Shown: positions 1 to 57,040 of the stretch, one piece after another | How positions within the stretch are numbered: the first letter of the stretch is position 1 | Layout: the number at the start of each line of letters is the position of its first letter | Assembly (NCBI GenBank): GCA_010093745.1 | Contig: MU005969.1 | Location: forward strand, 62,001 to 126,000 | DNA: 64,000 bases | Origin: Piedraia hortae CBS 480.64 | Taxonomy: Eukaryota | Direction of reading: 5' to 3' | Program-made: the position numbers and the translations under genes | Notes under the pieces: generated by a model | The model's input: only the letters and a program-made list of their open reading frames with translations | The model's database searches: none | What the model was told of the DNA's origin: nothing

Positions 1-1401
1 GCGGCGTCGTTGAAGTTGCAGAAAGAGGCAAAGGGTTACTTAGACTCGCTGCGCGCGATGACGGCGTCGCAGATGCGCATTGCAGAGACGATTGATACCT
101 TTTACGGCGAGGCGGGCGCGCGGGACGGCGTCTCCCGGAGTTATAAACAGGCGGTTGAGGATCTGGATGCCGAGACGATCAAAGCCTTGGATGGGCCGTA
201 TCGGTAGGCGGGATCAAATCGTTGCAAGCTATGGCTAATGATTGTAGGACCACCGTCATTGACCCCATCAGCAGATTTTGCGCATATTTCCCCGACATTA
301 ACGAGTGTATGTGGATTGCGTTGATTAACAGGCAGGTACTGACAATCCAGGCATAAAAAAGCGCAACCACAAACTGCTCGACTACGACGCCATGCGCAGC
401 AAAGTGCGGAGGCTGGTGGACAAGCCCGACAAGGATGCATCCAAGCTGCCTCGCGCAGAAAAAGAATGCGAAATGGTGAGCAAGCCCCAGTCCACCTCCA
501 CCTCGTTTGATCTCCCCCCGTTGAGTCCGGACATGCAACATTCTTCAAGAGTGATGGAGTGGCTTGCGCCGTTGCGTGCACGCCAAGGAGGTGATGATGA
601 TGATGATGATGATGATGATGATGATGATGATGATAATGCAACATCGCGTGCAAGAGCAGCGACAAACCCCGTGACGAGGGACTTTGCCACTGCGCCTGAT
701 AGCAAGAACCATCCAGCTTGGAAGAACCGAGCGGTAAGCATTACCATTCCGGGGGACAAAGAAGCGACGACGCTTCAGCGTGACATCCATCCAGCTTACA
801 GGTCTCCTGCATTCTGCATGTCAGACGAAGGCAACTCTTCAACAGAGCCGTCTTTGCCGCAGACGCCGGTATCGTATACCGGAAACCAAGCCAGGGACTC
901 GGGATCATTGCCCTCACTACCCTCATTCACATCAGGATCGTACACAGCAGAGCCGCACAGCTTCTTCGACTGGTCCAGCGACGAGAACCGCAAAAAGCAC
1001 AAGAAGGAAAAGCGATCAAAAGCTAACAAGATGTCGCAGGCCAAAGCAGGCTATGACCAACTGAACGACCAGCTAAGGAACGAGCTCCCGCAACTAATCG
1101 AACTGCGGTAAGCACATCCCACCCAACCCTGAAATTCACTAACAGAAAACCAGCGTTCCCTACCTCGACCCCACGTTCGAAGCCCTCGTCAAGATCCAAC
1201 TCCGCTTCTGTGCAGAGGCATACGGCCGCATGGCGCAGGTGCAGCAGTGCGTTTTTGACATTTTTCGAACATCACAACTAATTGCATAACAGATACCTAG
1301 ACGCATCAACCCGCGACCAGTACGCAAGCGGCGACCTCGACGCTAGAGTCGAAGACGTCCTCGGCCAGATCCGCGAGCTTAGCATTGCAGGGACAGTCTA
1401 G
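1..1401 (+). CDS. RVS161: Amphiphysin/BAR-domain protein Rvs161 (Hob3), 5'-truncated by the window
   Basis: Spliced reading LQKEAKGYLDSLRAMTASQMRIAETI...PYR/TTVIDPISRFCAYFPDINEC/IKKRNHKLLDYDAMRSKVRRLVDKPDKDASKLPRAEKECEM/AKAGYDQLNDQLRNELPQLIELR/VPYLDPTFEALVKIQLRFCAEAYGRMAQVQQ/YLDASTRDQYASGDLDARVEDVLGQIRELSIAGTV*. GT-AG introns at 204-247, 307-350, 476-1039, 1108-1153, 1247-1292. Confidence 0.95.
593..634 (+). repeat. (GAT)14 microsatellite inside the long RVS161 intron
   Basis: Read directly; encodes poly-Asp in the frame continuous with the flanking exons. Confidence 0.95.
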
Positions 1402-1511
1402 TAGCATTACAATGTATCATGATCCAACCAATTCCATCCGCTGTCCCATCAATCCCATCCTGCCAATGAAATTCCATCCCACCCAATCATCTCATCCTGC
1501 TCCCACCACCT

Positions 1512-1555
1512 CCCCCCCCCCCCCCCCCCCCCCCCCCCCCCCCTCCCCCCCCCCG
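1512..1555. repeat. Poly-C tract (~44 nt, one T interruption)
   Basis: Read directly, between the RVS161 stop and the NOP2 start. Confidence 0.95.
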
Positions 1556-54530: not shown

Positions 54531-56119
54531 AGAAAATACGGCTATTCTAGCTATATATAAAAGTTTTTGGGCAATGATGTCATGCATCTTGGGTTTGTGC
54601 GCAGGGGAAGCTATGGGACATGAGTGGAAAGGAGTCTTTGGGCTCCGCATGCATCCGAGTATACCTCTGTTGTACATAAACAAAAAAATTCGTGGGCTCC
54701 TCTATTGCGTGCTTAATGACTGAGTGATTCGTGGACCCTTGTAGCTGACGTTCACATGTTTTAGGCTGTCAGGGATAAAGTGGCCGTGGGACAAGGATGG
54801 CCTTGGAGATGTGGCGAGGGATCTGCAGCCGTGAACCTCTGCAGTGTGGCTGGTGCATTTCCCTTTAATCTAGAAGCGGCAAACCCCGGATCGCTTCCGC
54901 CCCTCTAGCGTGCAGGTTGGCTGTCTGTCAGTGGCCAATGATTATGGCGCTAGCGTCATAACCTATAACAACCTCGACGAGTCTCAGAGCTATGCACCTA
55001 GATCATGCTCGTCCGCCTTGATGTGTAATGTATTGTAAAAGTGACGCTCTGGTAAAGAAAACATCCTCCAATCATTCTCCAACGGGTGACGATTCTCCAT
55101 GAATGCATGGTGGAATAGCCCAGCCTGGAGCCAACCCCGATGAGCAAGACCATTCCCCATCATTCTCTCTATCGTTCTACCCAATATGTATCCTTCGCTA
55201 AACGCGCCGCAGAGCAATCCCTCCTAATCTTTCCCCTATCAAACGACCCGCCCACCCAGTCCTTTCTTTTCTGCCTTGGATGTTGCGGGGTGAGGGGTAA
55301 CTGTTACTGTACCACGCTTGGCAAGTAGGCTTGACAAATCTGCATACTGCAATTCACTGGGGGATTTGCAAGATTTGGGAGGTGGTACCCGCGTCTATCC
55401 TTTTTCTTTTTCATGTGGGGGTGGGCGGTGCGTGGGAGGGCATGTTTTTGGGGGTAAGTTGGGCGGTGGGTTTGCGTGGGATGCGTTTTCTTCGCTCCAT
55501 GGAAGGGAATCCACATCACAATTATGGACTGATGTGGGAGAGTTCGGGTTTTGTGAGCTGGTCAGGGTGTGATGTCTTTCAGAGGTGGGAAGGGTTGATT
55601 GCGGATTGAAGAATCTTTGGTGGCAAGCCTCGCATTTCGAACGGAGTTGTCCCTATCTTAATCAGGCTGGAAGCAATCTAATATAAACCCTCTCGAAAAG
55701 TTTAAGCAACCAGGCCGTGTCCAGAGCCTCTAGGTGGTTATCAAGGTATGAGCACCCATGAGTTCTTCGTTTAGCATGCCCCGTTCCCAAAACTTAAATC
55801 TCACCGAAACCACTCGCATCCAGCTTCGACGAGAGTGTGAAATAGGTCTCGGTGGGACAACCTCTTCATATTTACAGATGGATGAGGTCTCCCCATCGAA
55901 AAGATAGGGGAGGGCATGATCCCGTGAATGTATAGTTGACTCCTGGCATGAGGATATTCATTTTCAATATGTTGGCCATAAACTACTTCCCAACCACAGG
56001 TCACAAGTGAACATTCGTAGAACATCCACACTCATCTCCCCTTCTATGCTACACCGCACAGAATTGAACCATCGACAAAGTATCTCCTACACGCCCATCC
56101 CAACCCCCAACCTCCTCCA

Positions 56120-57040
56120 TCACCCCTCCCAAACCCACACAGCAAGCGCACAAACCCCCGAAAACAGCACGCCAACAACGCCCCTCCCAACCCGTCCCTT
56201 CCACGCCTTGACCTTCTCCCCCTCATTCCCCAATATCGTAACCACATCCCTCCTAACCGCATACTCAGCCCCACTATAGGCCGTCGTGACCGCGACAACC
56301 GCGCCCCCGTAACCAATCACCTCCGGGGACACGACCCCTGGAAACGCCGCACCAACCAACACACCCCCCATCAACCCCAACTGCAGAAGGGTGTTCCCCT
56401 TCGACACAGCCGTCGGATGAACCTCTGCAGACGGAATCCCAAAATCCCAGTACCTCCTCCACGTCTTCGGGTCTGGGAGCGAAGCGTAGCGGTACCAGAT
56501 GGCAGCTAAGCCGAGCGAAGCATCCCTCCCTAGAATTAGAACTGCGAGGGAGAGGGGTAAAGCGCCCTGGGCTGCGAGGGATGTGGTGAGGGTTATCATT
56601 AGGACTTTATCTGCTAGGGGGTCCAGGACGGAACCAGCGACGGTTTGGAGAGAGTATTTCCGTGCGAGGTGGCCGTCCAGGAGGTCGGTGAGGCCGGAAA
56701 GGAGGAAGAGTGTTAGGGCTGAGGGGTAGGATGAGGTGAGGATTAGGTAGCCAATTATGGGCGTTGAGAGGAGGCGGGAGGTGGTGAGGATGTTGGGGAC
56801 GTTGAGGAGTTGTTCGCGTGCTAGGGGGATAAGTTTGGGTTGTTTTGGGGGCGGTTTTTGGGAGGGAGGTGGTGGGTTGGTGGGTTGGGATTGGTAGCGG
56901 ATCCATGGGGGAGGGTGTGGTGTTGTGGTTGGGAGTCGTTGGGAGAGAGGGCTGGTTGGGATTCGGGAGAGTGGACTGGTAGGTAGTCTTCGAGAGATTG
57001 GGCAGGCTGATAGCCGCAAAAGAGTGACTGAACGCGACAT
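56120..57040 (-). CDS. CRD1: Cardiolipin synthase (CDP-alcohol phosphatidyltransferase)
   Basis: Presequence-like N-terminus, NVPNILTTSRL, GLTDLLDGHLARKY..QTVAGSVLDPLADK, RYWDF..PSAEVHPT..SKGNT.LQ. Confidence 0.92.
   Translation of the reverse strand: MSRSVTLLRLSACPISRRLPTSPLSRIPTSPLSQRLPTTTPHPPPWIRYQSQPTNPPPPSQKPPPKQPKLIPLAREQLLNVPNILTTSRLLSTPIIGYLILTSSYPSALTLFLLSGLTDLLDGHLARKYSLQTVAGSVLDPLADKVLMITLTTSLAAQGALPLSLAVLILGRDASLGLAAIWYRYASLPDPKTWRRYWDFGIPSAEVHPTAVSKGNTLLQLGLMGGVLVGAAFPGVVSPEVIGYGGAVVAVTTAYSGAEYAVRRDVVTILGNEGEKVKAWKGRVGRGVVGVLFSGVCALAVWVWEG

Follow-up and report, generated by a model that had tools for sequence, protein, structure and literature searches.

An extreme, step-like form of fungal intragenic strand skew in a 64-kb nuclear window of Piedraia hortae

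Introduction

Strand skew within genes has been described in yeasts, where the coding strand favors C in the promoter and at the start of the gene and favors G toward its 3′ end, the G bias peaking at the stop codon (McLean and Tirosh 2011, PMC3315797). The skew was significant in 33% of genes in C. albicans, 14% in S. cerevisiae, and 7.5% in S. pombe. Its cause has been open since that description: AT skew in these yeasts is flat and positively correlated with GC skew, and the two running in parallel was used as an argument against deamination, the Discussion of PMC3315797 putting forward an adaptive hypothesis based on cytidine triphosphate (CTP). Here we analyze 64,000 nucleotides (nt) of nuclear DNA from an intron-containing ascomycete, Piedraia hortae CBS 480.64 (GenBank assembly GCA_010093745.1, contig MU005969.1, positions 62,001 to 126,000 of the forward strand; hereafter the window, in whose own coordinates all positions are given), in which C/A-rich sequence repeatedly gives way abruptly to G/T-rich sequence (C-to-G flips). 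The flips are an extreme and qualitatively modified instance of the known fungal skew.

The window shares with the pattern of McLean and Tirosh (2011) the C bias at the 5′ end and G bias at the 3′ end, the involvement of fourfold-degenerate sites and of flanking sequence, a shift in amino acid usage, and an occurrence in many but not all genes. It differs, however, in that more genes are affected: by their test (last vs. first 100 nt, 1000 shuffles), 9 of 13 window genes are significant, compared with 33% in their strongest model species. The amplitude is also much larger, with fourfold-site skew reaching ∼0.8; the change is fitted better by a step than by a linear gradient; AT skew reverses with GC skew but in the opposite sense (r = -0.24, n = 320 windows); and in three long genes the C-rich block adjoins the 3′ block instead of lying at the 5′ end. 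The organism is a Dothideomycete-like fungus, a group that is not named in the passages of PMC3315797 on which this comparison draws. A literature search found no description of step-like keto/amino flips in nuclear genes of filamentous fungi, subscription journals being outside its coverage.

Other systems carry related asymmetries. At bacterial replication origins, a + strand that is C/A-rich to the left and G/T-rich to the right, with a G+T excess, is the classical signature, and in vertebrate mitochondrial DNA the strand asymmetry is driven by deamination. The flips resemble both in polarity and in keto/amino character, and their fourfold skew is of mitochondrial magnitude; they differ in their ∼1-kb scale, in being tied to gene ends, in numbering many units per 64 kb, and in lying on a nuclear chromosome. 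A C-rich strand bias near transcription start sites is said to have been found in plants and fungi by Fujimori et al. in 2005. The window has C-rich coding-strand tracts of this type in promoters and leaders (e.g., a 43-nt poly-C tract before NOP2 and a C10A9 run before PET127), but here the bias covers as much as ∼0.9 kb of coding sequence and has an opposite block at the 3′ end as its counterpart. Finally, in humans, genes whose 3′ ends carry GC skew are located where gene density is high, and R-loops form at these ends (Ginno et al. 2013, PMC3787257). Likewise, the non-template strand in the window has positive GC skew at gene 3′ ends, with G clusters predicted to favor R-loops; the human genes, however, have positive skew downstream of the start site also, whereas the 5′ side is negative here, and in the window several hundred nucleotides of coding sequence are invaded and recoded, the R-loops being predicted from sequence.

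Materials and Methods

All results come from this single 64-kb window with ∼20 genes. Flips were scanned for as the difference in GC skew between the 500 nt to the left and the 500 nt to the right of each position, with a cut-off of at least 0.45. Approximately 20 housekeeping genes were identified by Pfam, among them those for a NOP2-type methyltransferase, Pet127, adenylosuccinate synthetase, G6PD, an MFS transporter, CorA/ALR1, dyskerin, SNF2, IGPD/HIS3, MnmG/MTO1, a SUN-domain protein, CBP80, Gti1/Pac2, CRD1, and INO80. The best named relatives of the Pet127 protein are in Dothideomycetes (Hortaea, Baudoinia), at an identity of just 54-55%. RNA-like contigs (run X2, for which the RNA label is a guess) were placed across 37600-57500 and served as the basis for introns and three 3′ ends only; they contain 13 GT..AG/CT..AC joints, GT..AG introns of 45-57 nt, and loose poly(A)/poly(T) ends.

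Results

Skew flips exceed chance controls

The + strand switches from C-rich to G-rich at 11 sites, with jumps in GC skew (in brackets) at 1620 (0.52), 2640 (0.51), 4870 (0.47), 5290 (0.77), 15610 (0.70), 21250 (1.06), 36700 (0.66), 38850 (0.60), 46780 (0.62), 50260 (0.67), and 56460 (1.09). Among 200 mononucleotide shuffles of the window no jump was larger than 0.42, and when 30-nt chunks were shuffled 200 times none was larger than 0.53; eight of the 11 flips (jump at least 0.60) lie above both maxima, and the other three (0.47-0.52) above the mononucleotide maximum only. The flips are real and statistically solid. Similarly sharp reverse (G-to-C) flips occur at 4220, 6220, 20750, 39430, 50940, 52790, 55770, and 57170. 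None of these reverse flips was in a preliminary description of the window, made by eye, which had listed 11 C-to-G flips. Nine of the latter were recovered, to within ∼120 nt and with jumps of 0.51-1.09, and two proved weaker: the flip at 26180, in ALR1, is present but weak, three of 500 synonymous shuffles reaching its observed value, and the supposed two-armed flip at 55330 is instead a short, one-sided G/T block (Table 1).

AT skew shifts in the direction opposite to GC skew in nine of the 11 flips (change of -0.11 to -0.41). Flips occur on average once per 6 kb, and the skewed blocks, which are 0.13-1.0 kb long except for one of 1.5 kb, total ∼9.5 kb (15% of the window). A single step is a better fit than a linear logistic gradient in all eight skewed units, a three-block model fits better still, and fitted transition widths range from ∼4 nt (MFS, SLP1, NOP2) up to 355-547 nt (CRD1, PET127). 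The cumulative skew over the window has no long-range trend or V shape, and inspection by eye of the 11 aligned change points, without a formal motif search, revealed no shared motif.

Flips are anchored on the 3′ ends of genes

Read along the coding strand, all strong intragenic flips go from C/A-rich sequence on the 5′ side to G/T-rich sequence on the 3′ side. The preliminary description had taken the flips to be independent of gene orientation, but this is an artefact of symmetry: because a C-to-G unit is its own reverse complement, the + strand looks the same for + and - genes. It had further inferred a fixed-position process. Nine of 10 flips, however, lie 76-848 nt upstream of a stop codon, within a zone (<900 nt) that makes up 0.28 of the window (P = 8e-5), and distance to the gene 3′ end, which had been named as a competing account, explains them largely. 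The same proportion (9 of 10) lies within open reading frames (ORFs), including those of the conserved-domain genes PET127, HIS3, and CRD1. The reverse flips are found between genes in seven of eight cases, including the divergent 4HBT/PET127 (4220) and HIS3 (39430) promoters and the gap between the convergent poly(A) sites at 50579 and 50986. There was no C-to-G flip at a divergent promoter in the window. The central proposal of a gene-independent, fixed-position process, such as replication origins, is thus not supported.

Averages over genes give the same polarity. In the last 200 nt before the stop codon, which is the peak bin, coding-strand skew is positive in 15 of 19 genes (mean +0.24), and around 13 start codons its mean is -0.12 to -0.18 from -200 to +600. 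PET127, CRD1, 4HBT, and Edc1-like have a strong 5′ C bias, whereas MTO1, MFS, and SPO12 have none. In PET127, CRD1, HIS3, and CBP80, the blocks have edges at start codons, stop codons, or poly(A) sites. Non-coding flanks are skewed as well, equal in sign and magnitude to the adjoining coding sequence (-0.64 downstream of Edc1-like, -0.61 downstream of CRD1, and -0.38 upstream of PET127), and G/T skew continues past 3′ ends (+0.35 beyond the CBP80 poly(A) site and +0.57 downstream of MFS).

A link between skew and the absence of introns was also considered and rejected by inspection: MTO1, SNF2, INO80, and LRRPH are all unskewed, although MTO1 has no splice joint in the RNA contigs and SNF2, INO80, and LRRPH are each a single uninterrupted ORF.

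The effect acts at the nucleic-acid level

Skew is maximal at third and fourfold-degenerate positions. From the first to the last third of the gene, GC skew at fourfold sites changes from -0.75 to +0.61 in PET127, from -0.80 to +0.57 in CRD1, from -0.10 to +0.85 in NOP2, and from -0.36 to +0.53 in HIS3; third-position AT skew is +0.45 and then -0.37 in PET127, and +0.51 and then -0.70 in CRD1. Among 17 testable genes, nine have a flip that none of 500 synonymous-codon shuffles reaches, a profile different from that of codon-shuffled controls; the test is unremarkable in MBOAT, G6PD, CBF5, MTO1, GTI1, and INO80, and borderline in ALR1 and SNF2. The change of synonymous codon choice in mid-gene that the preliminary description reported is therefore confirmed, by the fourfold-site reversal as well as by the shuffles. 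Its strand-asymmetric process is supported; this acts on nucleic acid and not on protein, fourfold sites being the most skewed and non-coding flanks skewed too.

At fourfold sites, C-blocks have A/C/G/T frequencies of.27/.49/.12/.12, unskewed genes.18/.31/.32/.19, and G-blocks.07/.14/.57/.22. In twofold-degenerate codons, where a synonymous change is possible by transition only, the use of C in Y-ending codons is 0.79, 0.60, and 0.15 in C-blocks, unskewed genes, and G-blocks, respectively, and that of G in R-ending codons is 0.20, 0.68, and 0.81. The depletion of C is independent of neighboring bases: CpG observed/expected is 1.00, C retention ranges over 0.47-0.74 by 5′ neighbor, and this retention gives no TpC-specific loss of C. 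Context-specific mutagenesis (CpG methylation, TpC or APOBEC-like, or CpA as in repeat-induced point mutation) was considered on this basis and rejected, no clear context dependence being present; CpA is retained least (0.45), yet TpA observed/expected moves just from 0.58 to 0.66.

Amino acids contribute a share of the effect, the means of synonymous shuffles being 0.27-0.50 in the nine genes compared with 0.12-0.24 for codon shuffles. C-blocks have an excess of P, T, S, H, and Q (e.g., P: 0.094 vs. 0.037), and G-blocks one of G, V, and E (G: 0.103 vs. 0.044). The conserved domain of Pet127 has an amino-acid-level skew equal to that of 119 orthologues, whereas its unconstrained N-tail is the most extreme of 120 (-0.42 vs. 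-0.06 ± 0.06), and the nucleotide bias has therefore reshaped free protein parts in this lineage. The effect acts at the nucleic-acid level, not at the protein level.

Individual units

The skewed units are listed in Table 1. Pfam matches support the gene names that the preliminary description had given: RsmB-F (NOP2), Pet127, MFS_2 (transporter), CorA (ALR1), Sad1_UNC (SLP1), MIF4G_like (CBP80), a PNRC motif (Edc1-like), IGPD (HIS3), and CDP-OH_P_transf (CRD1).

Table 1 Skewed units in the window, with GC skew of the + strand unless the coding strand is named
Feature	Coordinates	Strand	Composition and skew	Further details
NOP2 promoter and 5′ leader	1400..1639	+	C-rich, -0.62	
Last 654 nt of NOP2, whole convergent 4HBT gene (-), and 4HBT upstream region	2640..4200	+	G/T-rich; +0.04 to +0.50 at the change point	Change point 2644; 200-nt skews +0.19 to +0.50
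PET127 promoter and 5′ half	4220..5290	+	Coding strand C/A-rich, nearly G-free; -0.30 to -0.53	Upstream 4220-4419, -0.38
PET127 3′ half	5297..6234	+	Coding strand G/T-rich, nearly C-free; right arm +0.52	Change point 5296-5297; ends at stop codon and (TAG)n repeat
Block within MFS transporter gene	14868..15767	+	C/A-rich, arm -0.23	-0.48 at 15001-15200; middle-third fourfold skew -0.58
MFS terminal block (last 132 nt and downstream)	15768..15946	+	G/T-rich; +0.72 to +0.79	Step 15768, width ∼4 nt; 15901-16000, GC skew +0.57, AT skew -0.66
Downstream of Edc1-like stop codon (21174), putative 3′ untranslated region	20750..21258	-	+ strand C/A-rich, arm -0.64; gene strand G/T-rich	20750-21173 (3′ flank), GC skew -0.64, AT skew +0.27
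Edc1-like gene body	21262..21755	-	+ strand G/T-rich, arm +0.43; coding strand C/A-rich	Middle third, coding-strand skew -0.53
ALR1 (CorA) weak unit	24914..26654	+	C arm -0.18, G arm +0.27	C arm to 26180; G arm to stop codon 26619
Unit of repeat-containing unnamed ORF (36198-36785)	36173..36837	-	-0.39 / +0.66	Flip ∼36708
HIS3 unit	38418..39335	-	-0.50 / +0.30; coding strand G/T-rich in 3′ part (38418-38737), C/A-rich in 5′ part (38737-39335)	Coding-strand fourfold skew by thirds -0.36, -0.50, +0.53
SLP1 terminal unit	46362..47272	+	-0.34 / +0.44	C arm 46362-46955; G arm 46955-47272; step 46949, width ∼4 nt; stop codon 47237
CBP80 terminal block	50199..50986	+	G/T-rich; -0.14 to +0.41 at the change point	Change point 50199; 50580-50985, +0.35
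Non-coding block between convergent Gti1/Pac2 and CRD1	55390..55600	.	G/T-rich; GC skew +0.48, AT skew -0.40	G-quadruplex (G4) motif 55450-55480
CRD1 unit	55975..57007	-	-0.54 / +0.57; coding strand G/T-rich in 3′ part and flank (55975-56471), C/A-rich in 56471-57007	Jump 1.09; coding-strand fourfold skew by thirds -0.80, -0.56, +0.57

The raw sequence of PET127 is striking, its first 700 nt being nearly without G and its last 900 nt nearly without C; CRD1 and Edc1-like have the same look on the other strand. A perfect (TAG)26.7 microsatellite (6147-6226) begins 9 nt past the stop codon of PET127, within the 179 nt that separate this gene from that for adenylosuccinate synthetase, which is convergent with it. 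The poly-C tract in the C-rich leader of NOP2 (1512-1554, 95% C) lies ∼90 nt upstream of the start codon. The NOP2 (+) and 4HBT (-) ORFs share 6 nt tail to tail (3293-3298), and the G/T block of NOP2 crosses the entire 4HBT gene, which is without a G-rich 3′ end of its own; the coding strand of this thioesterase gene is C-rich, with fourfold skew of -0.68, -0.20, and -0.83 by thirds. The CBP80 block covers the 360 nt before the stop codon (50559), crosses the poly(A) site at 50579, and extends as far as 50986, where the convergent - transcript has its own poly(A) site; the poly(A)/poly(T) ends at 50579 and 50986 are given by one RNA contig each.

In HIS3, the IGPD domain begins at residue 138 of the 303-aa ORF, and the true start may therefore be further downstream. 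A spliced + strand transcript, with introns at 39392-39445, 39537-39587, and 39662-39709, abuts or overlaps the 5′ extension of this ORF (-). The unnamed acidic ORF at 36198-36785 (-), for which a Pfam search of 36198-36722 returned no match, contains a 39-nt tandem repeat (36298-36485, 4.8 copies, 86% matches) encoding a 13-residue peptide repeat. The block at 55390-55600 has listed ORFs of up to ∼100 aa, which were outside the Pfam screening.

Long antisense ORFs are present in the skew blocks at 4909-5610 (-) (233 aa) and 56021-56509 (+) (162 aa), and are most likely by-products of the depletion of stop codons on the C/A-rich strand, which could lead gene finders astray. Elsewhere, strong negative AT skew (-0.5 to -0.7) occurs without GC skew at 28000-28400, the 3′ end of the dyskerin gene (-), and at 60200-61000, the N-terminal part of INO80 (-); the A-rich coding strand there most likely reflects Lys/Glu-rich low-complexity protein regions. 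Local GC content of 0.62-0.69 without strong skew is found at 19000-19800, 24600-25500, and 53400-54300, in the 5′ parts of LRR/PH, ALR1, and Gti1/Pac2, respectively, and a (TGA)15.7 repeat lies at 592-638. At 57455, within the INO80 3′ end, one run X2 RNA contig runs on for 255 nt as unlike sequence; a splice to a distant exon, a chimeric contig, and a strain difference are candidate causes.

Discussion

The flips show a process that is strand-asymmetric, acts on nucleic acid, is anchored on transcription units, is independent of sequence context, and shifts bases from amino to keto. A joint fall of A and C and rise of G and T on one strand is the classical signature of single-strand deamination, which fits here because A and C fall and G and T rise on the same strand. 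We consider it probable, with considerable room for doubt, that each flip is the internal boundary of a skew anchored on a transcription unit and arising from strand-asymmetric, amino-to-keto pressure on the single strand exposed by transcription. The coding (non-template) strand is G/T-rich and C-poor over the last 0.1-0.9 kb of the gene and somewhat past the stop codon, and C/A-rich and G-poor further upstream and in promoters and 5′ leaders. Changes on the exposed strand would comprise deamination of C (C-to-T, possibly also C-to-G) and A-to-G. Over the terminal block, pausing or R-loops near termination would expose the non-template strand of sense transcription; over the upstream block, exposure would fall on the opposite strand, e.g., through antisense transcription. 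R-loops gain stability from G-rich RNA, and the self-reinforcement that could follow would produce step-like blocks, nearly devoid of G or of C, in certain genes but not in the rest. G4 motifs and 18 predicted R-loop-prone stretches coincide with the blocks, nine of the 18 being sense-oriented at gene 3′ ends, as a self-reinforcing loop would allow. Of the possible causes listed in the preliminary description, bidirectional transcription or R-loop sites remain compatible with the data.

Several observations weigh against this transcription-exposure account. We infer the mechanism from base composition in a single window. The upstream C/A-rich block would require an extra assumption (antisense transcription or exposure of the template strand). 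The genes 4HBT, SPO12, GTI1, and SNF2 have no G-rich 3′ end, and INO80, SNF2, MTO1, and G6PD (also LRRPH) are nearly unskewed at fourfold sites, a difference between genes that the account leaves unexplained. In MFS, SLP1, and, weakly, CBP80, the C/A block adjoins the 3′ block on its upstream side instead of lying at the gene 5′ end, a placement unpredicted by a simple 5′-end/3′-end rule. Across 19 genes the amplitude of the 3′ block has no significant correlation with that of the upstream block (r = -0.19, P = 0.43), which speaks against coupling of the two arms into a unit. At fourfold sites the gain of G (+.25) exceeds the loss of A (-.11) and T is nearly flat (+.03), so that transitions are insufficient and C-to-G changes, or selection on G/C content, are needed in addition. 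Substitutions relative to the orthologue consensus go in the expected direction (net change in the C block: G -3.7, A +5.7; in the G block: G +7.8, C -5.0), but only 21 (C block) and 29 (G block) single-nucleotide changes were available, too few to tell transitions from transversions.

A more specific form of the account, which we regard as a rather unlikely conjecture, is that each C-to-G unit consists of two abutting, self-reinforcing exposure domains, with sense R-loops over the G/T terminal block and R-loops of antisense or internal transcripts over the upstream block. If so, deamination of the displaced strand would make each RNA ever more G-rich and lead to two-state, nearly G-free or C-free nuclear genes; the units in MFS (∼14870-15950), SLP1 (∼46360-47270), and CBP80 (∼50000-50990) would mark unannotated antisense transcripts; and this fungus would be a natural system in which to read the cause of fungal intragenic skew directly.

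The serious alternative, which we hold to be possible though improbable, is selection for the control of termination and R-loops in a compact genome, with G-rich, C-poor gene ends serving pausing or R-loop-assisted termination and G-poor upstream parts serving to avoid R-loops or RNA structure or to permit CTP-tuned elongation. The human 3′-skewed genes with terminal R-loops are found in gene-dense regions (PMC3787257), CTP has already been invoked for the yeast skew (PMC3315797), and several genes with strong blocks have a very close convergent neighbor: the NOP2 and 4HBT stop codons overlap, 179 nt separate those of PET127 and ADE12 and 228 nt those of MFS and LRRPH, and 407 nt lie between the poly(A) sites of CBP80 and its neighbor, the CBP80 block spanning exactly this gap. 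The excess of G gain over A loss at fourfold sites also looks as if G and C were the target. However, hundreds of synonymous and non-coding sites in each gene would need to be under selection, which would also have to override amino acid choice in unconstrained tails. Moreover, A and C both fall at fourfold sites, which models of termination or R-loops do not require; some closely convergent genes have weak or no 3′ skew (SNF2, LRRPH, ADE12); and the common spacer of a convergent pair allows only one G-rich partner.

A further candidate is single-strand damage linked to recombination. Recurrent double-strand breaks in nucleosome-free intergenic DNA would leave resected 3′ tails open to deamination, making the + strand G/T-rich to the left and C/A-rich to the right of a hotspot, and C-to-G flips would form where tracts of neighboring hotspots meet. 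The polarity agrees with this, the context-free amino-to-keto signature suits single-stranded DNA, the reverse flips are intergenic in seven of eight cases, that at the divergent 4HBT/PET127 promoter (4220) has arms on both sides, and blocks of 0.13-1.0 kb are about as long as meiotic resection tracts in budding yeast. The C/A blocks of MFS (14868-15767) and SLP1 (46362-46955) nevertheless start within ORFs, with neither a G/T block nor an intergenic region at their left, and most reverse flips are one-sided, whereas a G block comes immediately after almost all C blocks. We regard this explanation as quite unlikely.

It is very doubtful that the two arms were selected to pair as a long intramolecular 5′-3′ RNA duplex, another cause named in the preliminary description. 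C/A-rich and G/U-rich arms pair extensively from composition alone, and inter-arm duplex energy equals that of composition-matched, arm-wise shuffles in four of five units (z = -0.28, -0.48, +1.72, and +1.50), the Edc1-like unit having z = -2.2. The predicted CRD1 fold surpasses 25 synonymous shuffles in stability (z = -3.9), and 220 of its 290 pairs span the flip compared with 125 ± 24, but the PET127 and HIS3 folds are the same as their synonymous shuffles (z = +0.62 and -0.45). Inverted repeats are short and imperfect (14-23 nt, 71-87% complementary), with none in HIS3, and the CBP80 G/T block reaches ∼400 nt beyond the poly(A) site, outside the mature mRNA.

That the flips are efficient replication origins with a bacterial-type leading/lagging skew, as the preliminary description had proposed, is barely credible, for although polarity and G+T excess match the classical origin signature, the skew spans just 0.13-1.5 kb before falling to zero or reversing, with no cumulative trend on the scale of a replichore, nine of 10 flips lie in ORFs (conserved-domain PET127, HIS3, and CRD1 included) and track stop codons, block edges fall at start codons, stop codons, and poly(A) sites, the 11 change points have no common element by eye, and the divergent promoters at 4220 and 39430 have the opposite (G-to-C) polarity.

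The effect is several-fold stronger here than in the yeasts in which intragenic skew was described, is step-like, and has the opposite, amino-to-keto signature fitting single-strand deamination. Hundreds of synonymous sites have been recoded, and unconstrained protein tails reshaped, within single genes. This has practical consequences: codon-usage models, gene finders, and selection tests built on a single codon bias for each gene will go wrong on this genome, the skew yields long spurious antisense ORFs, and skew-based prediction of origins would give false positives. The kind of pattern is known, whereas its amplitude, step shape, and deamination-type signature would be surprising. So extreme a genome would make the question of mechanism tractable, and the organism would be a good system in which to settle it.

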